DNA of 29,670 nucleotides from positions 1 through 29,670 of IMG/VR virus record IMGVR_UViG_3300045988_131075. One strand, written 5' to 3'. Below are positions 1,206-16,745 of this stretch, piece by piece. The position numbers and the translations under genes are program-made. The notes beneath the pieces were generated by a model that was given only the letters and a program-made list of their open reading frames with translations, was not told the origin of the DNA and made no database searches. The DNA comes from a virus. The stretch's first letter is position 1. The number at the start of each line of letters is the position of its first letter.

Positions 1206-1211
1206 GAATAT

Positions 1212-2250: not shown

Positions 2251-2254
2251 TGAA

Positions 2255-2632: not shown

Positions 2633-2930
2633 AGTATCAATTCCTTTCTTTGGCGGTAGGTCGCTACCCTTTTGATATTATTAAGTATACCACATTTTAG
2701 AGGGCTTGTCAAGAGGTTTCGCAAACTTTTCACACGAATTACTACCCCGACCTGACGGATAATTTATTGTTTGTTGATTCAATCTATTTGTCAGCAAAAA
2801 TGCTTCGAGGATAATTGGTTCAATCAAACTCACTTTCACGTTCAACGTTTGGCTTTACAACGTGGTGTATTATGTTTTCTTCCTATACTTTCTCAAGGTC
2901 GCGCGCCCTCGGATTTCTTGGGCTACTCCC

Positions 2931-3290
2931 TCTTGACATTTTCTATTGTAGCACACTCGCTGGGATTTGTCAAGAAGTTTTCAAGAAAAAACTCATGAAT
3001 TTTTTCTTTTATCCCGTGCGTTCCGCTCCGAAGAGACCTTAACGTAATAGGTGAACGGTCTATTGCTACTTCCAACCGTAGCCCCACACCGACCTGTGGC
3101 TCAGGGGTTTCCCTCTTGACATTATTTATTGTAGCACTTTTCGCGCTACTTGTCAAGAGGGAATTTCAAATTTCTTTGAAAACGGGTCAGTTACCGAGTT
3201 ATCACACCCATCAGCGAAGCCGTTCGGCAATTCACTGTTCCCTCCTGACATTATCTATTATAGCAGATTGCCCACAGATTACAATTGACA
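2931..3290 (-). promoter_or_regulatory. Non-coding array of three palindromic promoter-like elements, E1 (2931-2975), E2 (3114-3160) and E3 (3243-3290). Each has the form cTCTTGACAtt-N6-ATTGTAGCA-N12-TTGTCAAGA. On the minus strand each reads as TTGACA-17-TGCTACAAT (E1, E2) or as a perfect extended -10 TGCTATAAT (E3).
   Basis: No ORF with an RBS lies within 2690-3340. The elements are spaced about 185 and 130 bp apart. The ORF-track 77-aa ORF at 2923..3156 is just a translation of these repeats. Confidence 0.6.
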
Positions 3291-3342
3291 AAATAACCAA
3301 ATTACGGGAAAAAATTTTCTTCACTTTTGGTCAACTTTTCTC

Positions 3343-3490
3343 TTGACAAAATTGGCGGGGCGTGGTATAATGGAAAATTCGGACCGCCACGTGCGCCAGC
3401 GGTCCGCCAATTTTATCACAAAAATCCGCGTTTGTCAATAGGCAAAATAGACAAAAAAAACTGCCCATTTTTGGGCAGTTTTTTATTTTA
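3343..3490. promoter_or_regulatory. Boundary module C2. It has a + promoter TTGACA(3343-3348)-17-TATAAT(3366-3371) with TG extension, and a GC hairpin cggaccgc-N12-gcggtccg (3380-3406). A minus promoter follows (-10 rc 3410-3415 with TG, -35 rc 3433-3438), then a bidirectional terminator (stem 3461-3478, T-run to 3484).
   Basis: All elements were read directly. The convergent promoters face each other across the hairpin. Confidence 0.75.
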
Positions 3491-3673
3491 GTCCAGCAGG
3501 TTAATCTCGCCAGGAATCCTAAAAGAATCCGCGTCCAGCGTGGAATTATAGTCCTCGGTAAAGAGTTCAATCATTCCACACTCTGCGCAGATAATATAGT
3601 CATGGTCGATTAAAATGCCCATGTGAGGGTCATTGTCATCAGGGACTACAAAAAGGACTTGTTTAGCGTTCAT
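3488..3673 (-). CDS. Small early protein of about 61 aa (MNAKQVLFVVPDDNDPHMGILIDHDYIICAECGMIELF...), with CxxC plus His and Asp residues that might bind metal.
   Basis: Start re-assigned to the ATG with AAGAGG 8 nt upstream. The gene ends inside the C2 terminator. The hairpin-embedded promoter at 3722-3750 is upstream. Confidence 0.6.
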   Translation of the reverse strand: MNAKQVLFVVPDDNDPHMGILIDHDYIICAECGMIELFTEDYNSTLDADSFRIPGEINLLD

Positions 3674-3750
3674 GTAAAACACCTCTTTCATTTGATACAT
3701 TGATTATACCATAGGGAATAGGACTTGTCAAGCCCTATTCCCTATTTTTT

Positions 3751-4527
3751 TTAGCTCATGTTTATCATGGGATTTTCCTTAATGTTTCGCATGAGCGCGC
3801 GCTGAAACTCGGTAGGCTTGGGGCGTTCCACCGTGGGAGTTTTGAAAAGGGACTTTTCCATTTCCTTGTGCTGTCGGACGCAATAGCGCAGAATCTCAAC
3901 TTCAATGAGGACATCTTCTAATCCCGTGTGGGATTCATCAAAACTGTCCTCGCCGCTGATAAAGCGATAGAGAATTTCTGCGGTGAAACGGAGCTGTCCG
4001 TTCTTGGTCTTGTAGCCGTTCTTTTCGCAATAGTCGCGGTAAGTGGGCATTTTGCCGATAACCTGACGTGCCATTTTCAACGTGTCCCAAATTTCGAGGT
4101 CGTAGGGGAAGAAATAGCGATACTTGCTTTTCGTGTCCCATCTTTGCGCGTTGTTACAGGCGTTAAGGTCGAACCGCATATTATGAGCGCAGACAAAAGA
4201 GCAGTTGTAGCGCTCGACACATTCGCAGAACGCAAGACGAATTTCGTAAAGGTCAGCCATAATGCGAGTGCCGTTTTGAATGTCCTCGACATAGCGGGGA
4301 ATCTTGTCGGCATAGTATGCGGACTGCATGAGGTCGCGCTCGTAGCAGAAAATGTCGCGATTCACAAAAGAATGAGTTTCATAAACATTTCCCTTGGAAT
4401 CAATGACCGCCCACCCAAAGTCGTAGGGCAATACATTTGACATATCCAGCTTATCGCCGTCCTGAATGGTGTTTGCGGTTTCCGTGTCCAGCATAATACC
4501 GTAGTTTCTGCGCCTATCAATACCCAT
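3751..4527 (-). CDS. DEDDh-family (DnaQ-like) 3'-5' exonuclease, 258 aa.
   Basis: Motif Exo I is IMLDTETAN. The C-terminal segment YRFISGEDSFDESHTGLEDV carries the His-x4-Asp of Exo III. Promoter TTGACA-17-TATACT, then the conserved 29-nt leader and AGGAGA RBS upstream (4540-4620). Confidence 0.7.
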   Translation of the reverse strand: MGIDRRRNYGIMLDTETANTIQDGDKLDMSNVLPYDFGWAVIDSKGNVYETHSFVNRDIFCYERDLMQSAYYADKIPRYVEDIQNGTRIMADLYEIRLAFCECVERYNCSFVCAHNMRFDLNACNNAQRWDTKSKYRYFFPYDLEIWDTLKMARQVIGKMPTYRDYCEKNGYKTKNGQLRFTAEILYRFISGEDSFDESHTGLEDVLIEVEILRYCVRQHKEMEKSLFKTPTVERPKPTEFQRALMRNIKENPMINMS

Positions 4528-4667
4528 TTTATCGTCTCCTATTGGAAAAGTAGATTGAGGTTTACCATCGTTCTCTCAACCTCTAAATATAGTATAGCAC
4601 TTTACTATTGGTTTGTCAATAGTTTTTTTGTGGGGCAGGGGATTTTTTTATCCCCTGCCCTTTTCCC

Positions 4668-5048
4668 TTATGCGCGGGAGAAGTAGGACTTGCGGTTGCC
4701 AACCGTCTTGACAACCGTGTCTGCGTCAATCATCTGACGCAGAAGAGCGGAAACGTGCTGGTTGGTATACTCCGCAAGCTTGGGAACGCCCTTGATGAGG
4801 TCGGTCACAGTATACAGCTTGTCGGGGTTTGCGGTCATCTCGTCCAGAATGACCTGCTTCACAGCGTCATTCTCCATCTGCTTGGCCGTGGGCTTCTTGT
4901 CGCCCGCGTTCTTTTTGACGAGCAGTTCAATCTCATGCTCGATGAACGCCACCATATCAGGATTTGCCTGAACCTCGCTCATTTTGAGCAGGGCCTCGAA
5001 ACGGTCACGCTTGGTGAGCTTCTTAGTCGTAGTAGTAGAAGTAGCCAT
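4668..5048 (-). CDS. Paralog B of the duplicated 125-aa early protein. It starts at MATSTTTTKKLTKRD, not at the ORF-track M 17 codons upstream, because the promoter -10 at 5101-5107 would put the TSS inside that extension.
   Basis: RBS aaaggaattgatact-ATG is identical to that of 2255..2632. The two proteins are about 70% identical with conserved ends. Confidence 0.7.
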   Translation of the reverse strand: MATSTTTTKKLTKRDRFEALLKMSEVQANPDMVAFIEHEIELLVKKNAGDKKPTAKQMENDAVKQVILDEMTANPDKLYTVTDLIKGVPKLAEYTNQHVSALLRQMIDADTVVKTVGNRKSYFSRA

Positions 5049-5545
5049 AGTATCAATTCCTTTCTGGTTTTTGAGACTGTCCTTGTCTATGGTAGTCATT
5101 ATATCATAGGCGGGAGTAGGTTGTCAATAGGTTTTTGCAATTTTTTTTAAGGGCGGTCGCGAGGTTTATTACTATACATCTTGTTTATACCTACCTTTAT
5201 CTATACTCTTAATCCAATTCAATTTACTAAGCCATTAGTTTTTAAGGCGGTGGACGAGCATTAGAAGTCATCTTGTTTTTACCTCTCTCATTTGATGTAT
5301 TCATTATACCCTACGTAGAACGATTTGTCAAGGGGTTTTTCAAACTTTTTTGAAAGTTTGTTCGGCACGCCACGCTTGGAACATTCCGTCGGATTTTGGT
5401 ATAATGGTCAAGGGAACTGCCTTTCCGCAGGTCTTACTCTTTCCTCCTGACATTATGTAGTATAGCAGATTGGTAATGATTTGTCTATTGGTAAAATGAC
5501 CAAATAACGGGAAAAAATAAAATTGAAATTTGTGCGAAATTTCTC

Positions 5546-5690
5546 TTGACAAAAATGCTGGCAGGGTGTATAATGGTAAATTCCGGCCGTAGCGCGCGGA
5601 AACGGCCGGCCCATTATATCACATTCAAGGAACTTTGTCAATAGTCAAAGTAAACAAAAAAATCTCCCCATTTTTGGGGAGATTTTCTTT
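5546..5690. promoter_or_regulatory. Boundary module C3. It has a + promoter TTGACA(5546-5551)-17-TATAAT(5569-5574), a hairpin ccggccg-N13-cggccgg (5583-5609) and a minus promoter (-10 rc ATTATA at 5613-5618 with TG, -35 rc at 5636-5641). It ends in a terminator, tctcccca-T5-ggggaga at 5664-5682 plus T-run.
   Basis: Direct reading. Confidence 0.75.
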
Positions 5691-5947
5691 TAGCCAATCA
5701 CATTGACTTCGGTTTTGACAGGCGTTACCATCTTGTCGCGCGAGAACTCGCGAACCTGACCCGTTTCAAGATTCACCGCGTAGCAATACTGCAAACCTCT
5801 CGACCGGACAAACGGCGTGTTGTTGTTGCTGTCAATTTTGAGATACATTCCCATACCGACCCCATTGGAGCGCAGAGTGGTGAACGTGCCACCGCTGGGA
5901 ATGTTGATAATTTGGAGCTGACCCTTAGTGCCAAAATTTACTTTCAT
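5690..5947 (-). CDS. Hypothetical early protein of about 85 aa (MKVNFGTKGQLQIINIPSGGTF...). Start set at the ATG with AAGAGGG 7 nt upstream.
   Basis: Ends at the C3 terminator. The following gene (5962..6276) lies 15 bp upstream. Confidence 0.55.
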   Translation of the reverse strand: MKVNFGTKGQLQIINIPSGGTFTTLRSNGVGMGMYLKIDSNNNTPFVRSRGLQYCYAVNLETGQVREFSRDKMVTPVKTEVNVIG

Positions 5948-5961
5948 TTTTATTCCCTCTT

Positions 5962-6276
5962 TCAAAATTCTTCTAAAAAGTGAATCGGCTTATGGTTTGG
6001 TCTAAAAAATGCCATTCCCTCGGTATAAAGAGAATTAAACAAATCTGCGGACACTTCAAACCATTCCGTGCCGCTAATGCGATTGCCTAACTCACTTAAA
6101 GTCAGATGACAAGAATTTTCCATGTCTCGACTTCCAGCGCAAGTGCTACGCATTATTGCTTTTGGATTATGGCTATAATAGCTTTTACGACGCTTTGCAA
6201 GGTTTTTAGTGCCGTCAGAATAGCCAACTTTAACCAAATGGCTATTGGTTAAATTATCCATCATCAAATACAGCAT
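5962..6276 (-). CDS. T5orf172-domain (GIY-YIG-like) protein, 104 aa.
   Basis: N-terminal LVKVGYSDGTKNLAKRRKSY and the C-terminal TEWFEV motif are typical of the T5orf172 family. RBS GAGG 5 nt before the ATG. Confidence 0.5.
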   Translation of the reverse strand: MLYLMMDNLTNSHLVKVGYSDGTKNLAKRRKSYYSHNPKAIMRSTCAGSRDMENSCHLTLSELGNRISGTEWFEVSADLFNSLYTEGMAFFRPNHKPIHFLEEF

Positions 6277-6283
6277 TTTTACC

Positions 6284-6427
6284 TCACAGCAGATGGATAT
6301 TAACCCATTCTGCGGTCACAAGTCCGATTTCCTTAGAGACAACCGTTTCATAGCGGTAATTACCGCCATCAGTTCGTCCGGTCACTTTGGCGAGAACGCC
6401 AAGAGTAAGCCAAAAATAAGGCATCAT
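6284..6427 (-). CDS. Small protein of about 47 aa (MMPYFWLTLGVLAKVTGRTDGGNYRYETVVSKEIGLVTAEWVNIHLL). The ORF-track 97-aa ORF is an N-terminally over-extended version that overlaps the upstream gene.
   Basis: RBS AAAGGGG 8 nt upstream of the ATG. The preceding gene ends 6 bp upstream. Confidence 0.45.
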   Translation of the reverse strand: MMPYFWLTLGVLAKVTGRTDGGNYRYETVVSKEIGLVTAEWVNIHLL

Positions 6428-6432
6428 TTTTA

Positions 6433-6639
6433 TCACCCCTTTGGACCGACCGTAAAGAGCGAACGCAGAAGCAACAGAACAATCCAAATTGCGAGTGCCA
6501 GCTTCCACGAGAACACAATGACGAAAGTGCCGATTGCGGTGATACCGAGGGCGGGAAGAAGCCAACAGAGAAGCCAAACCAGACCAGAGGTGAGCAGGAA
6601 CGAAATTGCGAGAGACAGCAGAATCAAAAGAACAAACAT
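6433..6639 (-). CDS. Small polytopic membrane protein, 68 aa, almost entirely hydrophobic.
   Basis: Promoter, then the conserved leader (gaatacatcaaatgaaaaggaga) and RBS upstream at 6640-6700. The -35 lies in the gggctttgtcaagccc palindrome. Confidence 0.6.
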   Translation of the reverse strand: MFVLLILLSLAISFLLTSGLVWLLCWLLPALGITAIGTFVIVFSWKLALAIWIVLLLLRSLFTVGPKG

Positions 6640-6694
6640 TTTATTTTCTCCTTTTCATTTGATGTATTTATTATACCATTGGAGTAGGGCTTTG

Positions 6695-7195
6695 TCAAGC
6701 CCTTTTCTCCAAAAGTTCCGAAAGTTTTTCGATAATGTTTACTGCGGTCGGGTCAATGGTAGCGCCCAAGTGCCAACCATTCCGAACTTTTTCATTATCG
6801 TCAACCAAGATGGACACGTCATAGCGGTCGCGCACGCTGTCGGCCTTAGTTGCGCCATACTGGACGCCATGGAAGTGGTCATAGTGGAAGCCCTGTTCTT
6901 CAAGCCATGCGCGCTTTGCTTCACGCACGAGGCTTTTGTATTCCTCGCTCGAATCCTTAGAGAGCCAAGTAATGATATTGATTTCCCAGCCCTCGGCGCG
7001 GAGAAGTTCGCAAACCTCATTCAATTCAGCCATGTCGCACATGGGAACGGCAGTTCGATAGGGCTTAGGATTTTCCGAACGGAGAAGCGCAAGCCAATCC
7101 TTGACGCCGTAGAGGTCAGCGATAGTGCCGTCCATGTCAAAGTTGATGGAGCGCCGACGAGCCACAACGTGGGACTTGATGTAAGTGATTTTCAT
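6695..7195 (-). CDS. HAD-superfamily 5'(3')-deoxyribonucleotidase-like protein, 166 aa.
   Basis: HAD motif I is FDMDGTIAD (DxDGT). Motif IV is ILVDDN near the C-terminus. The size and layout match the NT5C-type phage nucleotidases. Confidence 0.6.
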   Translation of the reverse strand: MKITYIKSHVVARRRSINFDMDGTIADLYGVKDWLALLRSENPKPYRTAVPMCDMAELNEVCELLRAEGWEINIITWLSKDSSEEYKSLVREAKRAWLEEQGFHYDHFHGVQYGATKADSVRDRYDVSILVDDNEKVRNGWHLGATIDPTAVNIIEKLSELLEKRA

Positions 7196-7201
7196 AGACG
7201 T

Positions 7202-7444
7202 TTATCTCTCCCCATTATCGTCTTTTTTAATAGCAACGCAGTCGTTTGACAGGTCATAGCAGAGCATAACCATAGTGTCAATAGCTTCGCGGTTGAAGCA
7301 AGTGCCGTTAGCTTCAAATGTTGCGGTGTCCTGATGGTTGAGTTCAGCACGAATACTTTCAAGAATTTCACTCATGCGGTCGATAGTATCGAGTTCTTCA
7401 TCAGTGAATGTGATGATGGCTTTCGAGCAAGAGTTGATAATCAT
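7202..7444 (-). CDS. Hypothetical acidic early protein, 80 aa.
   Basis: Consensus promoter TTGACA-17-TATAAT upstream (7455-7510 rc) and GGGG RBS. Stop and start abut the neighbouring genes. Confidence 0.55.
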   Translation of the reverse strand: MIINSCSKAIITFTDEELDTIDRMSEILESIRAELNHQDTATFEANGTCFNREAIDTMVMLCYDLSNDCVAIKKDDNGER

Positions 7445-7535
7445 TTTGGTTTACCCCTTTCCTTTACTATACTTGTATTATACCACTATTGGATTTGCTT
7501 GTCAAGTGTTTTTTTCAAAATTTTCGCGGTCTTTC

Positions 7536-7679
7536 TCAATACACGAAAGATAAGAAATTAAGCAAAATCAGCACAGGAATAGCGTATACGATATTGAAAT
7601 AGTCCCACCCGAGACTTTCACAGGAATAAGCAAAAATAAAGCCAAAAACGAGGCCGAAAATGCCGATTAAAATAATCAT
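7536..7679 (-). CDS. Small membrane peptide of about 47 aa (MIILIGIFGLVFGFIFAYSCESLGWDYFNIVYAIPVLILLNFLSFVY). Its start ATG overlaps the stop of the upstream gene (ATGA).
   Basis: AGAGGA 6 nt upstream of the ATG. This is the C-terminal part of the ORF-track ORF 7536..7721. Confidence 0.45.
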   Translation of the reverse strand: MIILIGIFGLVFGFIFAYSCESLGWDYFNIVYAIPVLILLNFLSFVY

Positions 7680-7939
7680 TCTAAATCCTCTATATGACCA
7701 TAGTGTTCGTTGATATGCCATTCAAGATAGGTATTAGTCGCAATCTGAATTTCTCTATCCAGCCAGTCATAAAAATCCTCGGGGTCGCGGGCCATGCGTT
7801 CATCAATGATATCTTTGAGAGAAACGCGGTGAGCAAGGAATTCCGAAATATCAAGAGAATCCATAGAAGAAAGAAGTTCTTCCACACATTCTCCGCGAGT
7901 AGAGAACTTTTCAGTAGAAAAATCGTGAGTGTAATACAT
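7676..7939 (-). CDS. Hypothetical acidic early protein, 87 aa.
   Basis: Promoter TAGACA-17-TATACT (7960-8000 rc) and GGGG RBS. The longer overlapping ORF 7690..8124 reads through this promoter and is rejected. Confidence 0.55.
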   Translation of the reverse strand: MYYTHDFSTEKFSTRGECVEELLSSMDSLDISEFLAHRVSLKDIIDERMARDPEDFYDWLDREIQIATNTYLEWHINEHYGHIEDLE

Positions 7940-8057
7940 TGTTTGTATCCCCTTTCTTTATGGTAATTATAGTATAGCAGATTATTACATTCTTGTCTAT
8001 TGGTAAAATGCCCAAATTCGGGAAAATAATTAGTTGGACTTTTGGCTAAATTTCCTA

Positions 8058-8200
8058 TTGACAAATTGCTGAGATGGTGGTATAATGGAATTTCCGGCCG
8101 TGGCATGCGCGAACGGCCGGCCATTTTATCACACTATTGGATTTTTGTCAATAGGCAAAATAGCTAAAAAAATGAGGTGAAAATTCACCTCAAATTTTAT
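8058..8200. promoter_or_regulatory. Boundary module C4. It has a + promoter TTGACA(8058-8063)-17-TATAAT(8081-8086) with TGG extension, a hairpin ccggccg-N13-cggccgg (8094-8120) and a minus promoter (-10 rc 8123-8128, -35 rc 8146-8151). The terminator is gaggtgaaaattcacctc at 8174-8191.
   Basis: Direct reading. Confidence 0.75.
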
Positions 8201-8376
8201 CTGTGATAACTGGTAGTAATGGTTTTGAAAATCTGATAGATATTTTCATCTTCCATCAACTTTTGGATAAAAGCATCAGCTTCTTCTTCGGAATCAAAAC
8301 TAACTCGATTATCATAATACTGGTCCCAAGGATTTTTACCGCTGTAATCAACCCGGAATGTCTTTTCAATTTCCAT
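8197..8376 (-). CDS. 59-aa acidic protein missed by the 60-aa ORF threshold (MEIEKTFRVDYSGKNPWDQYYDNRVSFDSEEEADAFIQKLMEDENIYQIFKTITTSYHR).
   Basis: RBS AAAAGGGG 8 nt upstream. Hairpin-embedded promoter at 8410-8447. The gene ends at the C4 terminator. Confidence 0.55.
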   Translation of the reverse strand: MEIEKTFRVDYSGKNPWDQYYDNRVSFDSEEEADAFIQKLMEDENIYQIFKTITTSYHR

Positions 8377-8451
8377 TTTATTTGCCCCTTTTCTTTGATG
8401 CTTTTATTGTAGCACAAGGGACTTGTTTTGTCAAGCCCCTTGTGCTATTTT

Positions 8452-8904
8452 TTAACGTTCAGACACAATGCTAAGGTAGCGGACAATCATGTCCATTTCG
8501 CAACCCATGTCTTGCTGGTCGCAAACCGCATAACCCACAAGGTCGCCGTCCGCACAAATCGGGTAAACACCATAAGTGTTATTGAAAACAAATGGCTTTC
8601 TTTTAAAATCCCACTGGGTCGAAACATAAGGCGGAAAGTTTTCCATACCCCGCAGTTTCACGGTAGTATCATAGATTGCGATGGGACGCAGACCGGAATT
8701 CGATGCCATTGTAATAGCGGTTCGCAGAGCTTCTTCGGTCAGCGAACCAAGCACCGAATATCTCTTGAAGCAAACGCAGTCGTTGTCTTCAATGAAGATT
8801 TCAAGCGGGTCGCCCTCGCGAATCTTCAAAGTCCGGCGAATCTCTTTCGGAATGACCACACGTCCAAGGTCATCAATTCTGCGAACAATACCAGTAGCTT
8901 TCAT
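8452..8904 (-). CDS. SpoVT/AbrB-family transcriptional regulator, 150 aa, with an N-terminal swapped-hairpin AbrB domain.
   Basis: The N-terminus MKATGIVRRIDDLGRVVIPKEIRRTLKIREGDPLEIF is near-identical in pattern to Bacillus AbrB and SpoVT N-domains. Promoter and conserved leader upstream. Confidence 0.75.
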   Translation of the reverse strand: MKATGIVRRIDDLGRVVIPKEIRRTLKIREGDPLEIFIEDNDCVCFKRYSVLGSLTEEALRTAITMASNSGLRPIAIYDTTVKLRGMENFPPYVSTQWDFKRKPFVFNNTYGVYPICADGDLVGYAVCDQQDMGCEMDMIVRYLSIVSER

Positions 8905-8968
8905 TTTAATTTTCCCCTTTCACTTGATACGTTAAGTATAGCAGAACAAAAGGCTTTTGTCAAGCCCT

Positions 8969-9451
8969 TTATTCAAGATTTTTGCTTTCTGCGACAAAAT
9001 ATTTTGCTTCATATTGATTGGCAATAGCCTTGACTTTTGCACTTTCCTTTTGGGTCGCGCAGTAAAAATTGAAAAGCGTATGTTTATCGCTTAATTTAAT
9101 GTAAGAGTGTGGAACGTCATGCAAGCCAAAGTCAATGGTATTAGTGTATCTTGTCGGGACAGTCAGCTCGACTTTCCATAGCTTGTCTTTGCGGGCTTTC
9201 TCTTCAATCCACTTGACAAAGTAGACGCCTACGAAATTACAAACAGCAGTAATAGCCATTTTCAACCAGATAGGCATACCGTCCGCGGAAGTCAGCACAA
9301 TCACATAGGAATAAAAACCATAAGTGATAGCATTGATAAGAGATGCGCTAATTTTTCCGCCGTTGACAGTCAAAATGCTTTTGATAGTTGACAGAACCAC
9401 ATTTACCGCCGTGCAAAGCGCGAACAGAAGAATTGTATTCATTATTATCAC
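8969..9451 (-). CDS. Membrane protein of 160 aa with about 3 TM segments in the N-terminal half.
   Basis: ORF with RBS AAGGAAAGGG. A promoter is upstream at 9480-9505. Confidence 0.55.
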   Translation of the reverse strand: MIIMNTILLFALCTAVNVVLSTIKSILTVNGGKISASLINAITYGFYSYVIVLTSADGMPIWLKMAITAVCNFVGVYFVKWIEEKARKDKLWKVELTVPTRYTNTIDFGLHDVPHSYIKLSDKHTLFNFYCATQKESAKVKAIANQYEAKYFVAESKNLE

Positions 9452-9515
9452 CCTTTCCTTTTTCTATTATAATAATATCATATTATAATAGAAATGTCAA
9501 TAGAGAATTTTTAAT

Positions 9516-9674
9516 TTACTCTTTTAATTTTTCTAATAGAGCATCAGCACATTCATAGCTGGTACTTCTGCGGTCGCACTCGTTGGACAAAGGACAACAC
9601 GCGCAGTCGTTAAAGGTCTCTACCCAAGCGCGCAACCAGTCAATCAAGCGCAAAGTATTAACTTCCTCATACAT
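9516..9674 (-). CDS. Cys-rich 52-aa protein (MYEEVNTLRLIDWLRAWVETFNDCACCPLSNECDRRSTSYECADALLEKLKE) that is translationally coupled: its ATG sits inside the 3' end of the upstream gene.
   Basis: AAAGGAG 10 nt upstream. An ATGTATGA overlap with the stop of 9667..10014. Confidence 0.4.
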   Translation of the reverse strand: MYEEVNTLRLIDWLRAWVETFNDCACCPLSNECDRRSTSYECADALLEKLKE

Positions 9675-10014
9675 TGTTATCATTCTCCTTTACTCGGACA
9701 AAAAAGACCTTGTTATAGATTTTTGTTGCTTTAAGGTCAATCCAGAAATACACGTTTCCGCATACTCGATAGATTTTACAAGTCTCTCCGCTAACCTTTT
9801 TGACTTCCTCAAATTTCTCTGGTGTTGTAGGGTGGAAAACCGTCAGTTTGAGAAATATGCAATAGAAAGCCAAAGGAACGAAGCCGATAATCATAGCAAT
9901 CCATGCGAGAACATCAGTTAAAGTGTTTTCCCATTCACACTACTCATCGGTAATTGTAGCGAACGCAATACCTACGCAAAACGCGAGAATTAACCAATAC
10001 CATGCAACCATCAT
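9667..10014 (-). CDS. Two-TM membrane protein. It is 115 aa if the in-frame TAG at 9940-9942 is read through; otherwise it is a 24-aa peptide plus the ORF-track 75-aa ORF.
   Basis: The only strong RBS (GGGGG 6 nt before the ATG) is at the upstream start at 10014. The ORF-track start at 9894 has no Shine-Dalgarno site. The two ORFs are in the same frame and separated only by TAG. Promoter TAGACA-17-TAAGAT upstream. Confidence 0.45.
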
Positions 10015-10118
10015 TTTGTTCCCCCTTTATTTGTTGTATACATCTTACCACATTATAGGATTTTTGTCTATTGGCATTTTACACAAAAATTCGTGCGAAA
10101 ATTTGTTGAACTTACCTC

Positions 10119-10240
10119 TTGACAAAAAACTCGGCGCGCCACAATCGTCCGCGCGCCGCCAATTTTATCACATTCAAGGAACTTTGTCAATAGTGAAAGT
10201 AAACAAAAAAAATCACCCAAATTGGGTGATTTTTCATTTA
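10119..10240. promoter_or_regulatory. Boundary module C5. It has a + TTGACA (10119-10124) directly abutting the hairpin cggcgcgc-N11-gcgcgccg (10132-10158), with no + strand -10. A minus promoter follows (-10 rc 10162-10167, -35 rc 10185-10190), then a terminator tcacccaaattgggtga (10213-10229) plus T-run.
   Basis: Compared with C2-C4, about 23 bp between the + -35 and the hairpin are missing. Confidence 0.7.
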
Positions 10241-10414
10241 GTTTCCTACGGCTTCGAGGTCGACGAGAATGGGAACGAGCTTGTCTTCAAGAAGCGCGAC
10301 ACGCTCAATCATTTCATTTGCTGCTGTTCCGCCCGACGGGTATCTCTTCTGAATGCCGTATCGAGCCATTCTGCACACCGTTTCAACAACCTCGCTCAGT
10401 TTCTCATTCTTCAT
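10238..10414 (-). CDS. Small protein of about 58 aa (MKNEKLSEVVETVCRMARYGIQKRYPSGGTAANEMIERVALLEDKLVPILVDLEAVGN).
   Basis: GGAG 9 nt upstream of this ATG. The ORF-track start 5 codons upstream lacks an RBS. Confidence 0.5.
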   Translation of the reverse strand: MKNEKLSEVVETVCRMARYGIQKRYPSGGTAANEMIERVALLEDKLVPILVDLEAVGN

Positions 10415-10526
10415 TTTTCTTATCTCCATTCAATTTATTTTTTGGAAAGGGTGGCGGTTGTTTCAGGCACAACCGCCAAAGCCATAGGAAAGGGGGAGAA
10501 AAAACACGAACAAAAGTTCGGTTTTG

Positions 10527-10775
10527 TCAAGGGATAATCAGTTCCGCATCGTAGACAGGTCGAACCATGCAGGGCGCGCTGAAGCAGTCAAGATTGTAAG
10601 TGTCCAAATTGAGAGCGTTCCATTTTTCTGCGCCGGTATCTTCATCAACCACAGACGCAGTTTTGATGTAATAGACGTTTCCGGAAGCGGGGTCTTGAAA
10701 AATCATACCCTCGAGGAGGTCTTCAAATGCAACCATTTTGTTGCTATGCTTAACAGTAATTTTCATTTCATTCAC
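10527..10775 (-). CDS. Hypothetical protein of 82 aa or slightly shorter, overlapping the upstream gene by ATGA.
   Basis: ORF coupled to 10772..11125. A weak hairpin plus T-run is downstream at about 10500-10520 (minus strand). Confidence 0.5.
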   Translation of the reverse strand: MNEMKITVKHSNKMVAFEDLLEGMIFQDPASGNVYYIKTASVVDEDTGAEKWNALNLDTYNLDCFSAPCMVRPVYDAELIIP

Positions 10776-11125
10776 CCTTTATAATAGTATTTGTAAGCCC
10801 ATTCGATGATTTCATGACTTGTGGTAGTCCATTCCTCTTTGGGGCTATCGAACTTTTCCGCATACTTTTTGATGTAGTTATTATACTCCATGCGTGCGGT
10901 GTCGTATGCTCCAATAGCCACAATTAAGGCGTGCTTCGCTTCTTCGGCATCAGAGACGGCTTTCTTGCGGTCGGGGCAGTCAGGATAGAGGTTAATCACC
11001 CCTACGCGCGTAATGACTTGCCTTGTCTTTTCATAAAGGCGGTCGCGCGTTTCCCATACTTCATAGAGCTCATCATCTGCACGTTTTTCATAAGGGTTGA
11101 AAGGCTTCTTTTTCTTACCGAACAT
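10772..11125 (-). CDS. Hypothetical protein of about 117 aa (MFGKKKKPFNPYEKRADDELYEVWETRDRLYEK...). The ORF-track N-terminal extension runs into the upstream gene and is rejected.
   Basis: AAAAGGAG about 11 nt upstream of the ATG. Overlaps the stop of 11115..11453. Confidence 0.5.
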   Translation of the reverse strand: MFGKKKKPFNPYEKRADDELYEVWETRDRLYEKTRQVITRVGVINLYPDCPDRKKAVSDAEEAKHALIVAIGAYDTARMEYNNYIKKYAEKFDSPKEEWTTTSHEIIEWAYKYYYKG

Positions 11126-11453
11126 TTTTCTTTTTCTCCTTTTCCTGTTTATTCCACATTCTATCAAAGAACGCATTTGCGAGAACACGCTTGTAAAGGT
11201 TGTCAGGCATGGGGCGCTCGCCGTGCTTGTTTCTCCAAATCGCGGTGATTTTATCAATATCCGCGATATAGGCTGTAATGAGTGTGCCGTCCTTGGCGCT
11301 ACGAATAAGAAGAATACCGGTTGTAGTGATAGTGTAGAGAACATCGTCCTCAACGCTGTCGATATACGGTTCGCCGATTCCTACATTATCGTAGATGAAG
11401 AGCAGGCGGTCAATGCGGTCTTGCGTGGCGTGTTTTGACATTTTGATAAGCAT
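11115..11453 (-). CDS. Hypothetical protein of 112 aa.
   Basis: AAGAGG 8 nt upstream of the ATG. Extended -10 TGGTATAAT upstream (11468-11480 rc). Confidence 0.55.
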   Translation of the reverse strand: MLIKMSKHATQDRIDRLLFIYDNVGIGEPYIDSVEDDVLYTITTTGILLIRSAKDGTLITAYIADIDKITAIWRNKHGERPMPDNLYKRVLANAFFDRMWNKQEKEKKKNVR

Positions 11454-11514
11454 TTGTTTTACCTCTTTCTTTTCCTCTTGGATTGATTATATTATACCAT
11501 GCGGAAGGGCTTTT

Positions 11515-11550
11515 TGGAAAAAGAGGGAAAAATTTTCCCTCTTTATTTAT
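11515..11550. terminator. Bidirectional terminator agaggga-aaaatttt-tccctct with a flanking A-run and T-run.
   Basis: Downstream of the minus gene 11547..11819. The hairpin is at 11522-11542. Confidence 0.55.
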
Positions 11551-11819
11551 CCCCAATAGATTGAAAGAATCTTGTCAATGTAGCTGGCTTTATAGCCATA
11601 ATTCTGCATAATATCTTTGCAAGCCTGCTTGACCCTCTTGTCATTTATTGAAGCAAGAGAACATTCGTAAAGTGTTTCTCCCGTTCCGGCCACACGCTCA
11701 ATTTCTGGCATGATGTGGTCTTCAATGAACGCACGCGCAAGGGCATTATTTTTAGCTTGGATTTCTTTGCGAACTTCCTCGGCTTTGCGCGTCATTTCAT
11801 AAGCATATTTAATTTCCAT
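11547..11819 (-). CDS. Hypothetical protein of 90 aa.
   Basis: Promoter TTGACA-17-TACAAT sits in the hairpin gcatataggg/ccctatatgc (11852-11895). RBS AAAGGGAG. Confidence 0.6.
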   Translation of the reverse strand: MEIKYAYEMTRKAEEVRKEIQAKNNALARAFIEDHIMPEIERVAGTGETLYECSLASINDKRVKQACKDIMQNYGYKASYIDKILSIYWG

Positions 11820-11897
11820 GGTGTTTCTCCCTTTCCTTTATTGTATCTTTATTGTAGCATATAGGGCTTGTTTTGTCAAGCCCTATATGCAATTTTT

Positions 11898-12206
11898 TTA
11901 GCAATAGGCGAGATTCCCGCGTGCCCAGCCATATACGCTGATTTGATTGCACGCCTTGCCAATTTCAAGCGCCTGCTTTTTGGTCTGCACCCTCTTGGAC
12001 TTGTCAACATAATAGATGCCGTTCGCAAGCCATACACCGCAGTTTCCGCCGAAGCCCTTAACCGCATTGATAGCTTCGCGGGCGGTCTTGCACTCAACGC
12101 CGTTGGTAGCGACCTGCCAACCGGACTTGTAGTTGACTTTCTTGCCATATTTGAGGGTCATGCCGTCGTTTTCAGCGAGCTTGCGAATAGAACGAATGTT
12201 AATCAT
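11898..12206 (-). CDS. Hypothetical protein of about 102 aa (MINIRSIRKLAENDGMTLKYGKKVNYKSGWQVATNG...), with the start re-assigned.
   Basis: AAAGGGA 7 nt before this ATG. Promoter TAGACA-17-TATACT upstream. The ORF-track 156-aa version starts upstream of that promoter. Confidence 0.5.
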   Translation of the reverse strand: MINIRSIRKLAENDGMTLKYGKKVNYKSGWQVATNGVECKTAREAINAVKGFGGNCGVWLANGIYYVDKSKRVQTKKQALEIGKACNQISVYGWARGNLAYC

Positions 12207-12334
12207 GTTGTTATCCCTTTCCGGTTTGGTAGGTTTTCCTTCCCTTACTGTGATTATAGTATAGCACCGATTCGGGATTCTGTCTATTGACATTATGCAC
12301 AAACTTTCGTCATAAAAATTGTTGAACTTGCCTA

Positions 12335-12455
12335 TTGACACAAAATTCCGGCCGCGCCTGGCGTGCACGGCCGGCCGATTATATCACCAAGTTTTGAAAT
12401 TGTCAATAGGCAAAATATACAAAAAAATCTCCCCATTTTTGGAGAGATTTTTAAT
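12335..12455. promoter_or_regulatory. Boundary module C6. It has a + TTGACA (12335-12340) abutting the hairpin ccggccg-N13-cggccgg (12348-12374) and a minus promoter (-10 rc ATTATA at 12378-12383 with TG, -35 rc at 12401-12406). The terminator is tctcccca-T5-ggagaga (12428-12447).
   Basis: Like C5, it lacks the + strand -10. Confidence 0.7.
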
Positions 12456-12498
12456 TCAAAAAATTTAATTTTAACCATCAACATAAATGATAAGAACA

Positions 12499-12711
12499 TC
12501 ATCTTTGGCTTTCAAACCGCTGACAGGCAAATCCCAGCACCCATTCTTCGCTTACGCCCAAAACATCACCATTCAGAGTCATGCGACCTTTGCGGTCTTT
12601 GAGATAGCGCCCGCAAGTGTTTTCATTTATCACTTCAATGCCGTTCCCCTCATAGAACATCAGTGCGCCTTTTACCAGACCAATCACATTTTTAACCATG
12701 CCCAAAGTCAT
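12499..12711 (-). CDS. Hypothetical protein of about 70 aa (MTLGMVKNVIGLVKGALMFYEGNGIEV...).
   Basis: AAAGAGG 8 nt upstream. Promoter TTGACT-17-TATACT. Ends 45 bp from the C6 terminator. Confidence 0.55.
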   Translation of the reverse strand: MTLGMVKNVIGLVKGALMFYEGNGIEVINENTCGRYLKDRKGRMTLNGDVLGVSEEWVLGFACQRFESQR

Positions 12712-12820
12712 TTTATCAACCTCTTTCGTTTTTAATGTCGTTCCCTTGGAACAATTATAGTATAGCACAAGGTGTAGCAAAAGTCAACTTAAATTTTGGG
12801 ATTACCAATAGATAAAATGT

Positions 12821-12867
12821 ATAAAAATTCGGCAGGATTTTGTGTATCCTGCCGAATTTTTTTTATT
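12821..12867. terminator. Bidirectional terminator ggcaggat-tttgtgt-atcctgcc followed by T8.
   Basis: Stem at 12831-12853, with A/T runs on both sides. Confidence 0.6.
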
Positions 12868-13057
12868 CTTCCCAACTTTCGATGACTTCGCCGGTCATTG
12901 CATCGATGATGTCAACCGAGAGGACGTTGTCTGCGTCCATGACCTTCTGCCCGAGGGCATATGCGTTTTCCTGTCCCGCGACAGACACTTCATAGCGATA
13001 GCGGTTGTTATCGCCAGCCTTGTAATTGTAGTAGTTGACAGAAACAATAAATGACAT
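12863..13057 (-). CDS. Hypothetical protein of 64 aa.
   Basis: RBS AAAGGGGA. Promoter TTGACA-16/17-TATAAT upstream (13090-13130). Confidence 0.6.
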   Translation of the reverse strand: MSFIVSVNYYNYKAGDNNRYRYEVSVAGQENAYALGQKVMDADNVLSVDIIDAMTGEVIESWEE

Positions 13058-13161
13058 TTGGCTTATCCCCTTTCTTTTTATACTCTTATTATACCATAGA
13101 TTCAGGATTTGTCAATAGGTTTTTGAAAAAAGTTTGAAAAAAAATAAGGGCGTTTCCGCCC

Positions 13162-13419
13162 TTATTCTTCATAAATAATAATATTATTTTGTAGCAGTTT
13201 CACGCGAGAATCTTCACAAAAGTGATAGGTAAAACTCACGGAGAGGTGTTTGAGAAATTCGCGTCTCCATGTGCGGGACTTCGGCTCTAATTCAAAGAGA
13301 ATGTAAAGCGTTTCTTCTAACCGGTCGAGGAAGTTTTCAGTGTCCGCGACGTTGAACTTACCCGCGAATTTCGGAATAGGATTAGAAGTCCCAACAGTAA
13401 TAATGTTGTAAGTTGTCAT
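13162..13419 (-). CDS. Hypothetical protein of 85 aa.
   Basis: Conserved leader plus AAGGAG 8 nt upstream. Promoter TTGACA-17-TATAAT (13440-13475 rc). Confidence 0.6.
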   Translation of the reverse strand: MTTYNIITVGTSNPIPKFAGKFNVADTENFLDRLEETLYILFELEPKSRTWRREFLKHLSVSFTYHFCEDSRVKLLQNNIIIYEE

Positions 13420-13506
13420 GGAAAAATCTCCTTTTCATTTGATGCTTTTATTATACATGATAGTGTGGAACTTGTCAATACTTAAAATAGAAAAAAGAGA
13501 AGTTTT

Positions 13507-13611
13507 TCAACTTCTCTTTTTCAGTTTCTTTTCTGCCCATTCAATGAGCGCACCCACGGCGATTGTACCGGTATAAATGAAAAGTAAAACTAAACCATCA
13601 TGTAGACTCAT
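13507..13611 (-). CDS. Alternative model, gene 2 of 2: a 34-aa single-TM peptide (MSLHDGLVLLFIYTGTIAVGALIEWAEKKLKKRS).
   Basis: GGAGG 9 nt upstream of the ATG. Same frame and stop as the ORF-track 76-aa ORF 13507..13737. Confidence 0.4.
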   Translation of the reverse strand: MSLHDGLVLLFIYTGTIAVGALIEWAEKKLKKRS

Positions 13612-13612
13612 T

Positions 13613-13741
13613 TTAATATTCCTCCACATACTCTGTAAAAACAAGCTCCCAGTCAGGGCCAAGATCCGGAGCTTTGCAGTATCGCGACTGTCGAATGTCA
13701 TGCTCATTAGTGATTTTGTTGATAAACTCGAATTCATACAT
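13613..13741 (-). CDS. Alternative model, gene 1 of 2: a 42-aa acidic protein (MYEFEFINKITNEHDIRQSRYCKAPDLGPDWELVFTEYVEEY).
   Basis: AAAGGAGA about 10 nt upstream of this ATG (14 nt for the ORF-track ATG in another frame). Its TAA is followed after 1 nt by the ATG of gene 2. Confidence 0.4.
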   Translation of the reverse strand: MYEFEFINKITNEHDIRQSRYCKAPDLGPDWELVFTEYVEEY

Positions 13742-13830
13742 TTTTTATTATCTCCTTTTCTTTACTGTACCAATAGTATAGCAGATAACAGGGTATTTGT
13801 CAATACCATTTATAAAAAAATGTACGAGGT

Positions 13831-14127
13831 TTAATCCTCGTACATTTCCATTAACGATTTGATTTTTTCGATTGTATTTTCAATTTCTTCTACATAGTCG
13901 GCCTGTTCCTCACTTGCGCGCATTGCCTGTTCATATGCGTCATAGATAGCTTCACACTGTTCGCGGGTGTAGTCTTCTTCTGGAGCGTGTTCCATGGTGA
14001 CGACTGCCGTCCAAGCGAGCGTTTCCTTATCGTCAAGGTCATCGGCTTTTTCCGTGGCAGTGGTAAGCTCATGTTCGAGGCGCGTCTTTTCGAGCGAGAG
14101 GGTCTTGAGAAAATCCTTGTTAGTCAT
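13831..14127 (-). CDS. Acidic coiled-coil protein of about 98 aa (MTNKDFLKTLSLEKTRLEHELTTATEKADDLDDKE...).
   Basis: The ORF-track start is the ATG inside the conserved leader (caaATGaaaaggaga). The real start is 8 codons downstream, after that RBS. Confidence 0.6.
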   Translation of the reverse strand: MTNKDFLKTLSLEKTRLEHELTTATEKADDLDDKETLAWTAVVTMEHAPEEDYTREQCEAIYDAYEQAMRASEEQADYVEEIENTIEKIKSLMEMYED

Positions 14128-14328
14128 TGCGGTGTATCTCCTTTTCATTTGATGCCTTTATCATACCACTTCTGGACTGAATGTCAATAGGTTTTTGAAA
14201 AAAATATTTATTCATCAGGGCTGTATAAATATTCATGTATAAATATTCATTTTCGGGTGTATAAAGGCGACTGGCATAATGCACAAAATGGTTTCAAAAT
14301 TTTTGTGCAATATAACTATTGCAAAACT

Positions 14329-14355
14329 CGGCGCGCTGCGACCCACAGCGCGCCG
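14329..14355. promoter_or_regulatory. Orphan copy (C7) of the module GC hairpin, cggcgcgc-N11-gcgcgccg. It has no associated promoter or terminator.
   Basis: Same stem as C5, with a different loop. Flanked by AT-rich tandem repeats. Confidence 0.55.
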
Positions 14356-14382
14356 GCCAAATGCATATGTATGATTATTCAT

Positions 14383-14440
14383 GTATATTCATTGTATATT
14401 CATTGTATATTCATTGTATATTCATTGTATATTTATTCAT
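14383..14440. repeat. Tandem 11-bp repeat gtatattcatt, 4 perfect copies plus a variant. A second pair of 14-bp repeats, tgtataaatattca x2, is at 14222-14249.
   Basis: Direct reading. Confidence 0.8.
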
Positions 14441-14450
14441 ACATAATATG

Positions 14451-14484
14451 CAAAAATAGAGAGAGACTTAATAAGCCTCTCTCC
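14451..14484 (-). terminator. Intrinsic terminator for the minus-strand operon: hairpin gagagag-N11-ctctctc, followed on the minus strand by a T-run.
   Basis: The stop codon of 14468..14830 lies in the hairpin loop. Confidence 0.55.
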
Positions 14485-14830
14485 ACACCTTGATTATTTC
14501 ATCATCTGCTATATCATCTGTGTCATTGTCGTTTATCCACAAAAGCAGAAAATCATTATCATCAATGGTCATATTCTCAACTTCCCATTGGTTGCCACGT
14601 TCGTCCAGTAGCGTGATGGTGTTACCATTTCGGGAAACGACCTCTGCACCGATAAAGCGTATGCTTCCTCTCTCTGTGCCAGCGCCACACCATTCATCTA
14701 ATGCGGTGAGGTCGTAGGACTGGGGCGCTTCCTCACAGGCTTCCGCGGTTGTGTGGTCGTGAAATCCGAAGAAAGACACGGAGAGAATGATGGCAATGGC
14801 CATGGTGATGATTTTGGAAACGTTTTTCAT
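14468..14830 (-). CDS. Secreted or membrane-anchored protein of 120 aa with an N-terminal signal/TM segment (MKNVSKIITMAIAIILSVSFFGF).
   Basis: AAGAGG 9 nt upstream of the ATG. Hydrophobic N-terminus followed by an acidic domain. Confidence 0.6.
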   Translation of the reverse strand: MKNVSKIITMAIAIILSVSFFGFHDHTTAEACEEAPQSYDLTALDEWCGAGTERGSIRFIGAEVVSRNGNTITLLDERGNQWEVENMTIDDNDFLLLWINDNDTDDIADDEIIKVWREAY

Positions 14831-14852
14831 TTTGTTTTACCTCTTTCTTACT

Positions 14853-14996
14853 TTATAGGTTAGTAGCGATAGTGACAACAGCAATAAGCATGAGCGTGCT
14901 TGAGACAGCTTTGCCTACATTCTTGCTATCTATGGCATAGACAAAATTATATGCGCTTATAGCGGTAAGCACAATAATAGCGGCAATGATAGACAT
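14853..14996 (-). CDS. 47-aa membrane peptide (MSIIAAIIVLTAISAYNFVYAIDSKNVGKAVSSTLMLIAVVTIATNL).
   Basis: GGGGAG 8 nt upstream of the ATG. Lies between two larger genes with about 25-bp spacers. Confidence 0.45.
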   Translation of the reverse strand: MSIIAAIIVLTAISAYNFVYAIDSKNVGKAVSSTLMLIAVVTIATNL

Positions 14997-15026
14997 GGCA
15001 TATGCTCCCCTCTTTGAGCGAGTGGG

Positions 15027-15500
15027 TTAAACCCACTCGCTGAATAGCTCACTGATGAAGTCATCGTGGACGTCATCAGGCAGTTGGTCGATGGTACACT
15101 CATAGGTGCTTACCACGGTAAGCGATGAGCCATTTTCAAGGTTCTCACGCTCAAACTTATCCCGTTCGCCAGATGAAAGAAAAAATGCGGTATAATCGTA
15201 AGTGTCTTCTCCATCATTGATGGAATAATCCACTACCTTAAAGCGCGTCTTGTTCCAGAGGTTCGCTATGATGGAAAGATCCATGGCCAGCTCTTCCTCG
15301 TGGCGAACAGCTTCGAGAGACGCCTTATACTTGCGCCATGCGGCTACCGTAAAGTCTCTTATGCCGCACCCGATAAGACAATGGTATTCCTCTAAGTCTT
15401 TGATAACCAGTTTGCGTCCCTCGCGCACCATTTCCCAAGCGTTTTCTGCCATTGCGTTGATGGTGACAGCATCATATTTATGCAAGCCCTGAATTTTCAT
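15027..15500 (-). CDS. Hypothetical protein of 157 aa.
   Basis: Long ORF in the operon and no overlapping alternative. Confidence 0.55.
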   Translation of the reverse strand: MKIQGLHKYDAVTINAMAENAWEMVREGRKLVIKDLEEYHCLIGCGIRDFTVAAWRKYKASLEAVRHEEELAMDLSIIANLWNKTRFKVVDYSINDGEDTYDYTAFFLSSGERDKFERENLENGSSLTVVSTYECTIDQLPDDVHDDFISELFSEWV

Positions 15501-15581
15501 TGTGTAGCCCTTCCCGCGCTTTTTGCGCTATCGTGTTATATGTAGGTATGTTCCCCTTGTGGGGAGTGAGGGCTTACGCCC

Positions 15582-15875
15582 TCACTTTGCAATCTTTGCA
15601 GTAACGGAAGCCGCACGCGGCGCGCCAGTCTTCTTGTACTTTTCAAAACACTCCGCATAGAGTTTCGGAGCTTTGTTGCGGAACATTACTGTATCGAGTG
15701 TTTCAGTAGCCTTGCCACCCTTGCCGACGATAACAGTAAACTTATTGTAAGTAAAAGTAACGCTTTCGCCGTCGGCTTCCTCGCGGGCTTCCGCCTTGAG
15801 CAATTCTAACTGTTCCTTGAGCGCATCTATCTGCGCGGAAAGCTCACACATCTTTTTAATTTTGTTGTTCGTCAT
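15582..15875 (-). CDS. Hypothetical protein of 97 aa with an N-terminal coiled coil (LSAQIDALKEQLELLKAEAREE).
   Basis: ORF. A weaker promoter (TTGTAT-17-TACCAT) upstream at about 15905-15945. Confidence 0.5.
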   Translation of the reverse strand: MTNNKIKKMCELSAQIDALKEQLELLKAEAREEADGESVTFTYNKFTVIVGKGGKATETLDTVMFRNKAPKLYAECFEKYKKTGAPRAASVTAKIAK

Positions 15876-15959
15876 TTTTGAATCCTCGTTTCATGTAATT
15901 TACCGTTCGGTGTTTCGCCGTTCAGCATGGTTACATGGTAGCAGATTCAGCCACGGAAT

Positions 15960-16280
15960 ACAATTGACGGATTGCACAAAGATTTGTTTTATACGGGGCG
16001 GGCTTTTGTGCAATCTACCGCCGGGCGGCACCCTTACATCATACCTTTGCATTTTTATTCATTCAAGAATGAATAAAACCTGCATAGAGGGGGGGTGTAT
16101 TTCGGGAAAAATAAATTTTTATTTATCGTTTTTTCTTTTGCCTGGTCAAAACGCAATCTAAATCAATTTTCAATTTCAGATTACGAAGAATAATTTAAAT
16201 TTATCATAATCAATTTTCAATTTCAAAATACGGTTTAAAACAATAAATCAATTTTCGATTTCAAATTACGACTTCTTTTT
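15960..16280. promoter_or_regulatory. Non-coding region between the two genome modules. It holds a perfect 11-bp inverted repeat gattgcacaaa/tttgtgcaatc (15970-15980 and 16005-16015), a 22-bp palindrome ttattcattc-aa-gaatgaataa (16055-16076) and a palindrome aaaaataaatttttattt. Three iterons aatcaattttc(a/g)atttcaNaWtacg lie at about 16160, 16209 and 16246.
   Basis: Direct reading. No ORF with an RBS apart from the small gene at 16266-16400. Confidence 0.6.
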
Positions 16281-16400
16281 TCTACCTCTTTTAGGCTTCT
16301 CACCCCACATAAGAGTGTATAATCCAGAAGTAGCAGAGTAAGTAGCCTTCTGCTGATACTTTTTAGCGACTGCCTTCAAGGGACTGAGTGGTTTCCGCAT
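16266..16400 (-). CDS. 44-aa basic peptide (MRKPLSPLKAVAKKYQQKATYSATSGLYTLMWGEKPKRGRKKKS).
   Basis: GGAGG 9 nt upstream of the ATG. TAA stop. Its 3' end overlaps the third iteron. Confidence 0.4.
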   Translation of the reverse strand: MRKPLSPLKAVAKKYQQKATYSATSGLYTLMWGEKPKRGRKKKS

Positions 16401-16424
16401 TTAATTTTTCCTCCATATATTCGA

Positions 16425-16745
16425 TTAATTTATCTTTATATTTACAACTATCAATATATCTATTAATAATTTTTCCATTAAGTGTTCTAATACATATTTG
16501 TATTTATTCAACTGATATTCTTCTTGTTCTTCTTTGGTGCTTAATTGAGCCTTTTCCGCGTCTGATAAAGGTCTGTAAGTAATCGTTCTTGACCCATTAT
16601 CCTTTTGCTCAATACGTATTGTTTTAAATAATTTCCAATCTCTTACAAAAGGGTCTTTATCTCTTGTAGTGTTAAAATATTCTTGTTCTAATCTAAATAT
16701 TACCGCGTCTATCCCTCTTACTTCAAAAGGCTGGTTCCATCCCAT
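16425..16745 (-). CDS. Hypothetical protein of about 106 aa (MGWNQPFEVRGIDAVIFRLEQEYFNTTRDKDPFVRDWKLF...).
   Basis: GGGAGG 9 nt before this ATG, inside the 3' end of the upstream gene. The ORF-track N-terminal extension has no RBS. Confidence 0.5.
   Translation of the reverse strand: MGWNQPFEVRGIDAVIFRLEQEYFNTTRDKDPFVRDWKLFKTIRIEQKDNGSRTITYRPLSDAEKAQLSTKEEQEEYQLNKYKYVLEHLMEKLLIDILIVVNIKIN

Follow-up and report, generated by a model that had tools for sequence, protein, structure and literature searches.

A probable natural tryptophan-to-amber allele of an early membrane-protein gene in a phage that reads TAG as glutamine

The window analysed here is the whole 29,670-nucleotide stretch of virus record IMGVR_UViG_3300045988_131075. 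On its minus strand, at 9667..10014, lies a gene for a predicted two-helix membrane protein of 114 or 115 aa, with a single in-frame TAG at 9942..9940 (codon 25 counted from the ATG at 10014) where the ancestral codon is TGG (Trp). The 24 codons ahead of the TAG encode a hydrophobic helix, MMVAWYWLILAFCVGIAFATITDE, and past the TAG the same frame runs open as far as the TGA at 9669..9667. There are two adjacent ATG codons (10014..10012 and 10011..10009) behind a GGGGG Shine-Dalgarno sequence (10025..10021; 6 nt before the first ATG and 9 nt before the second) that is invariant in 11 aligned sequences. The original prediction placed the start at the first of these, and both that ATG and its spacing from the GGGGG are as described. 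Nonetheless, the first ATG is ATA or absent in 11 of 28 relatives (4 of 10 from IMG/VR and 7 of 18 from metagenomes), so the conserved start is ATG 10011, from which the TAG is codon 24 of a predicted 114-aa protein.

The only start in 9667..10014 with a ribosome-binding site is the one served by the GGGGG, as was first claimed. The internal ATG at 9892..9894 (minus strand), which opens a 75-aa ORF (9667..9894), lacks a purine-rich Shine-Dalgarno sequence; relatives encode Met, Leu or Ile at this position inside helix 2, and it is not a conserved start. Gene callers that use the standard code split the gene here and report a spurious 75-aa product. Immediately downstream is a 52-aa gene (9516..9674, minus strand) with its own AGGAG, which is called as a gene in three relatives (L091-L093) and whose start codon overlaps the stop codon of 9667..10014 (ATGTATGA). 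Pfam and PHROG scans of the neighbouring genes found an AbrB/MazE-type protein and proteins without an assigned role.

Upstream of the gene, on the same strand, is a sigma-70-type promoter at 10042..10070 (TAGACA at 10070..10065, a 17-nt spacer and TAAGAT at 10047..10042, with a TG upstream as in extended -10 elements). It is nearly invariant among relatives and, as was first noted, of an early type. This promoter is P2 of a repeated intergenic module of ~230 nt, one copy of which lies directly upstream of the gene. The module occurs in five minus-strand copies (3250-3490, 5440-5690, 7950-8200, 10030-10240 and 12240-12460), each consisting, in order, of a terminator hairpin, a consensus promoter P1, a GC-rich hairpin and promoter P2, which drives the next gene. 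The GC-rich hairpin has a stem of 8-10 bp that varies in sequence among the copies, sits approximately at the predicted transcription start and has a folding energy of -17 to -23 kcal/mol. An Rfam scan of the whole window, module included, returned no match; we speculate that the hairpin is a 5ʹ-terminal mRNA stabiliser or a short RNA specifier. Elsewhere on the minus strand, two closely similar paralogues of 125 and 143 aa (2255..2632 and 4668..5099; ...KKLTKRDRFEALLKMSEVQA...KNAGDKKPTA...) are each preceded by a promoter.

Kyte-Doolittle windows place two hydrophobic segments in the 115-aa protein, at residues ~3-21 and ~35-59, followed by a charged tail, in agreement with the two membrane segments first proposed for the read-through product. 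The loop between the helices, which holds the TAG, is acidic and free of Lys and Arg; all Lys and Arg residues sit in the ~55-residue tail after helix 2. By the positive-inside rule, both ends are therefore predicted to be cytoplasmic: the N-terminus would lie inside, the acidic loop would face outwards, and the C-terminal ~55 residues would make up a basic cytoplasmic domain. An AlphaFold2 model (mean pLDDT 60) is too uncertain to use; at this low confidence it has helices at 3-25 and 30-60, with the C-terminal 55 residues as a helix and three strands. Pfam and PHROG scans of this protein and of the second TAG-containing protein discussed below were uninformative, with no match better than E = 0.03 for the 115-aa protein. 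The GC3 of the gene (0.42) resembles that of early genes (about 0.5), unlike that of late genes (about 0.2). In IMG/VR the gene was found at 10 loci, compared with 121 hits for the putative capsid protein; it is conserved but non-universal. From its placement and size we would guess at an early host-takeover or exclusion-type membrane protein.

The window is sharply divided in composition. In the early region (1..17300), GC3 is near 0.5 and CAG is favoured; in the late region (17300..29670), GC3 is near 0.2 and CAA is favoured. Within 1..17400, some 30 sigma-70 promoters that match the consensus perfectly or nearly so lie on the minus strand, most of them with an extended -10 (89 hits in a promoter scan, compared with 39 expected), and the plus-strand block has no excess. 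The putative capsid gene (25921..27027) is atypical within the late block, with a GC content of 0.40, a preference for CAG and no TAG.

Under the standard code the plus strand from 17315 is fragmented, and long contiguous ORFs, with up to 12 TAGs each, appear across 17315..29645 only when TAG is a sense codon. This block includes the portal gene (PHROG match), which itself carries 12 TAGs. At 47 TAG sites in the window, CAA (26 sites) and CAG (12 sites) are the codons that relatives most often have instead, and TAGs of relatives in turn mostly align with CAA or CAG in the window. This exchange indicates that the phage reads TAG as Gln, and it substantiates the earlier premise that TAG is read as an amino acid. 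TAG as Trp, suggested by the alignment of TAG 9942 with TGG, was rejected, since TAG elsewhere swaps overwhelmingly with CAA and CAG.

Early and late genes differ strikingly in their use of TAG. In the 11 late genes, 45 of 157 Gln-type codons are TAG (29%), whereas 34 early-side genes, the two candidates being excluded, have none among 78 Gln codons (Fisher p = 1.9e-9). TAG does not serve as a stop codon in any gene of the window: 36 early-side genes end in TAA (21) or TGA (15), and all 11 late genes end in TAA. In up to 10 relatives for each early gene there is no in-frame TAG; the single exception is one relative in which a CAG six codons before the end of one gene has become TAG. This comparison across relatives rests on a hand-checked gene set. 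An automated TAG census of extended loci had also suggested a frequent TGG/TAG polymorphism in another early-side gene, which we rejected as an out-of-frame artefact of an over-extended ORF; it is a synonymous GTG/GTA change in the preceding gene. We infer that TAG is not decoded well while early genes are translated, in agreement with the published model for recoded phages.

No tRNA gene was found in the window or in the first 58 relatives' loci scanned. The tRNA array of this clade, reached in relatives by three 10-kb walking steps and one DNA-pattern scan, lies ~45 kb past the early/late junction of their contigs, in the orientation of the early genes. One relative contig (IMGVR_UViG_3300045988_119030) carries a predicted tRNA with anticodon CUA (locus L147, 2988..3077, minus strand; detected by ARAGORN and by the Rfam tRNA model at 56 bits) and also an intact copy of the 115-aa gene (L004). 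Hence, the suppressor tRNA that the original prediction called for is absent from the window but present in a relative of the same clade. The tRNA(CUA) is 90 nt long, with 17 extra nucleotides in the variable region of the Rfam alignment, a U1/U72 mismatch and G73. In five relatives, the head of the array carries a tRNA-like gene of 71 nt to which ARAGORN assigns a two-base anticodon, 'tt' or 'tc' (L133 17650..17720; L134 17646; L140 18445; L145 62; L146 3709). Just upstream of the array in L133 (contig IMGVR_UViG_3300045988_118370; 10649..17570, plus strand), a crude automatic ORF call gives large multi-TAG ORFs on the strand of the early genes, with TAG swapping with CAA and CAG in relatives; TAG use thus appears to extend beyond the plus-strand block of the window.

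A second gene, at 16723..17115 on the minus strand, had been put forward as the same situation. It encodes a predicted 130-aa protein with an N-terminal membrane anchor and has a TAG at codon 37 (17007..17005), an AAGGAG upstream of ATG 17115 and a sigma-70-type promoter at 17156..17184 (TTGACA, 17 nt, TATTAT; promoter scan, minus strand). The ribosome-binding site, the TAG and a single gene of 130 codons, which is one ORF in 16 relatives, are all as proposed. In other respects the likeness fails: the codon is TAG in 13 of the 16 relatives, CAA in one and CAG in two, two relatives (L014 and L016) have additional TAGs at other Gln codons of the gene, and the composition (GC 0.29, GC3 0.18) is late-like, unlike that of early genes. 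To judge by these exchanges, TAG 17007..17005 is a genuine and mostly conserved Gln-type TAG, in line with the published recoding model, which it does not extend.

The first gene on the plus strand (17318..18373) is sigma-factor-like (PHROG 5767, E = 2e-35) and is preceded by a perfect TTGACA-17-TATAAT promoter (region 17265..18373). Of 20 relatives, 18 share both of its in-frame TAGs (17660 and 17762) and two have CAA at both sites. As a candidate for a code-gated switch, such a sigma-like factor, with its host-type promoter and its dependence on suppression, is stronger than the gene at 9667..10014.

Comparison with relatives shows that TAG 9942 is of a different kind. All 10 IMG/VR contigs that carry the gene have TGG (Trp) at the TAG site and an unbroken ORF of 114 or 115 codons, and TGG is retained even in a copy that is only 64% identical in protein. 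All 18 metagenome loci, which were retrieved regardless of reading frame, likewise have TGG, and 17 of them have an uninterrupted ORF. The ORF is therefore continuous in 27 of 28 relatives; the exception (L106, on a contig with coverage 2.5) is broken by an insertion and by a stop at Trp38, yet still has TGG at the TAG site. Neither TAG nor CAA or CAG occurs at this codon in any of the 28 loci, so the site does not behave as a Gln-type recoded codon. Indeed, among 20 aligned database proteins the residue at this position is Trp in 19, Phe in one and Gln in none. A search with the 115-aa protein returned 13 protein clusters, the largest with 1,276 member sequences; these hold only close relatives, and none of the clusters has a source name or a Pfam domain. 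The pN/pS ratio is 0.02 for codons 2-24, where changes at third positions are synonymous, and 0.14 for codons 26-108, which argues that both halves are coding and constrained as one protein. At the level of sequence, these comparisons confirm that 9667..10014 is a single gene split by a TAG, as originally proposed, and the continuous ORFs of relatives make a chance alignment of two halves untenable.

Is the TAG real? We met it again only in L091 (ENA ERZ27261196), which is 99.8% identical to the window across 16.2 kb. The 7 mismatches and 2 gaps between them mark L091 as a separate assembly of the same strain, and a one-off error is unlikely because this separate assembly has the same TAG. Hence, TAG 9942 is probably real and private to one strain. 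The nearest intact relative (L001) differs from the window in this gene by the TAG and three synonymous changes and by nothing else, which makes the lesion look recent. The lack of any nonsynonymous change after the TAG relative to L001 fits either a recent lesion or continued use of the gene by read-through. Read from the alignment, the TAG is a derived, single G-to-A transition of a conserved Trp codon, TGG to TAG, that is rare in the population.

Other alleles, broken independently, came to light in a look-up of the exact 75-aa product. This look-up is biased towards disrupted alleles because standard-code callers report that product only when the N-terminus is broken. Besides L091, it returned a different amber, a TAG at Trp38, in L092 (3367..3711) and a TGA at Cys13 in L094 (coverage 0.58). 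The database also contains several variants that look frameshifted or truncated (proteins P0004, P0007-P0009, P0011 and P0013). In the unbiased samples, the gene is disrupted in only one of 28 loci.

What is the functional significance of the TAG? We think it likely that the window carries a natural Trp-to-amber allele of an early membrane protein, partly buffered by a suppressor of the phage, and that the gene is neither a timer nor a lysis protein. The gene would be transcribed from a host-type sigma-70 promoter within the standard-code early block. With host factors only, the host release factor would end translation after 24 residues, leaving an allele that is null or strongly reduced. Once the phage tRNA(CUA) has accumulated, the TAG would be read as Gln to give a full-length Trp25Gln protein; given the 12 TAGs of the portal gene, late suppression has to be efficient. 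A full-length product made only late is plausible for the TAG allele because early-side genes avoid TAG (0 of 78), and since the downstream two thirds of the gene has not decayed, the allele may still be functional in a suppressor-dependent way. If suppression starts early, the TAG allele amounts to a plain Trp-to-Gln missense change. Late-only translation, as first reasoned, may well hold for this allele, but as an accident of one strain and not a conserved design. If the allele is functional and late-only, it would illustrate how nonsense mutations are buffered by a suppressor that the phage itself carries, and how the timing of a gene could change in one step. We regard it as improbable that the change from TGG to TAG in this suppressor-carrying phage is such a one-step switch from early to late production, here as Trp25Gln, and not a knock-out. 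Were that so, alleles of this kind would be natural intermediates for the spread of TAG into early genes or for the re-tuning of timing.

The original prediction went further, in that it took the TAG for an evolved, suppressor-gated timer, kept by selection to restrict a membrane protein, perhaps a holin, to late production although its promoter is early. Several observations agree with such a timer: the phage reads TAG as Gln while its early-side genes otherwise avoid TAG, the sequence downstream of the TAG has not decayed, the protein has two helices with both ends predicted inside, as in some holins, and a published model proposes the same logic for lysis genes. However, relatives carry a sense codon, TGG in 28 of 28, and do not conserve the arrangement, which is the outcome that the original prediction itself had named as its refutation. 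Trp instead of Gln as the ancestral residue points to a recent G-to-A lesion in place of an evolved timer, and codon usage in the gene is of the early type. The proposed role in lysis also finds no support, as there is no match to holin families in Pfam or PHROG, weak hits included, no endolysin among the neighbours scanned, and no hit for the Phass-1 amidase either in the window or among the loci retrieved for the clade. We therefore judge an evolved timer very unlikely.

An alternative explanation is that the loss itself is selected, because knocking out a non-universal membrane protein pays in some hosts, for example where it is costly or sensed by defence; null alleles would then recur. 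There are at least four different premature stops and several frameshifted-looking forms, in separate assemblies. However, most of these variants come from the biased 75-aa look-up, two of the stop alleles are on contigs with coverage of 0.58 and 2.5 and may be errors, the unbiased samples contain a single disrupted locus, and intact alleles are under strong purifying selection. Hence, selected loss seems unlikely. A sequencing or assembly error at a true TGG codon would account for a single-base difference, but the same TAG stands in the separately assembled 16.2 kb of L091, and we consider an error highly improbable.

Two-helix class II holins such as S21 are small proteins with two transmembrane helices and an N-in/C-in topology. 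The 115-aa protein shares the small size, the two transmembrane helices and the predicted N-in/C-in arrangement. Unlike S21, it has no family match, does not lie beside an endolysin gene, and has an early-type promoter and codon usage. In place of a short charged tail, its C-terminal 55 residues are predicted, with low confidence, to form a helix and three strands.

Another parallel is with classical amber mutants that are rescued by a Gln-inserting suppressor, for example in supE hosts of lambda and T4. As in those mutants, a single-base change from TGG to TAG would leave the product truncated unless a tRNA with anticodon CUA inserts Gln. Unlike those mutants, the allele described here arose in nature and the suppressor is borne by the phage; whether the product is rescued would accordingly be decided by how far infection has progressed and not by the strain of the host.

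This phage clade is previously undescribed. The closest described phage, to which it is distantly related, is Phass-1 (OQ749652), whose putative capsid protein is 50% identical in a protein search; at the DNA level, neither the locus nor the plus-strand block matched any GenBank phage, Phass-1 included. Phass-1, of the proposed Phassvirus group of the human gut, uses TAG for Gln and carries suppressor tRNAs (PMC10607447). The relatives of the window likewise come from human-gut metagenomes, and the two phages have in common the reading of TAG as Gln and a large tRNA array, which in Phass-1 includes tRNA-Sup-CTA. In both, a block of small genes abuts, in the opposite orientation, a block with the capsid-gene homologue. 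The analogy with Phass-1 makes a host among the Clostridia probable. In contrast to Phass-1 (136 kb), contigs of this clade reach about 190-200 kb, and the 90-nt tRNA(CUA) with its long variable region differs in sequence from the Phass-1 suppressor.

Delay of late or lysis gene translation by an in-frame TAG has already been proposed for gut phages with genetic code 15 (bioRxiv 10.1101/2021.08.26.457843), and code 15, in which TAG is reassigned to Gln, has experimental support (PMC9523058). The phage studied here resembles the published code-15 phages in its standard-code early genes, its TAG-rich portal block, the tRNA(CUA) of its relative and the interchange of TAG with CAA and CAG. The second site (17007..17005) and the sigma-factor-like gene at 17318..18373 also fit the code-15 model. 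The phage thus exemplifies published ideas twice: in the sharp split between TAG-free early genes with host promoters and a TAG-rich portal block, and in a sigma-factor-like gene with two conserved TAGs behind a consensus host promoter. TAG 9942 departs from the code-15 design, since it replaces a Trp codon, is not conserved, and lies in an early-type gene without a link to lysis; on these grounds we take it to be a mutation in a recoded phage and not part of the recoding design. Stop-codon recoding is an already known phenomenon, and the specific allele is a rare mutation. In the annotation of code-15 phages, a lone TAG within an early gene that otherwise lacks TAG calls for comparison with relatives before a regulatory role is assigned to it.
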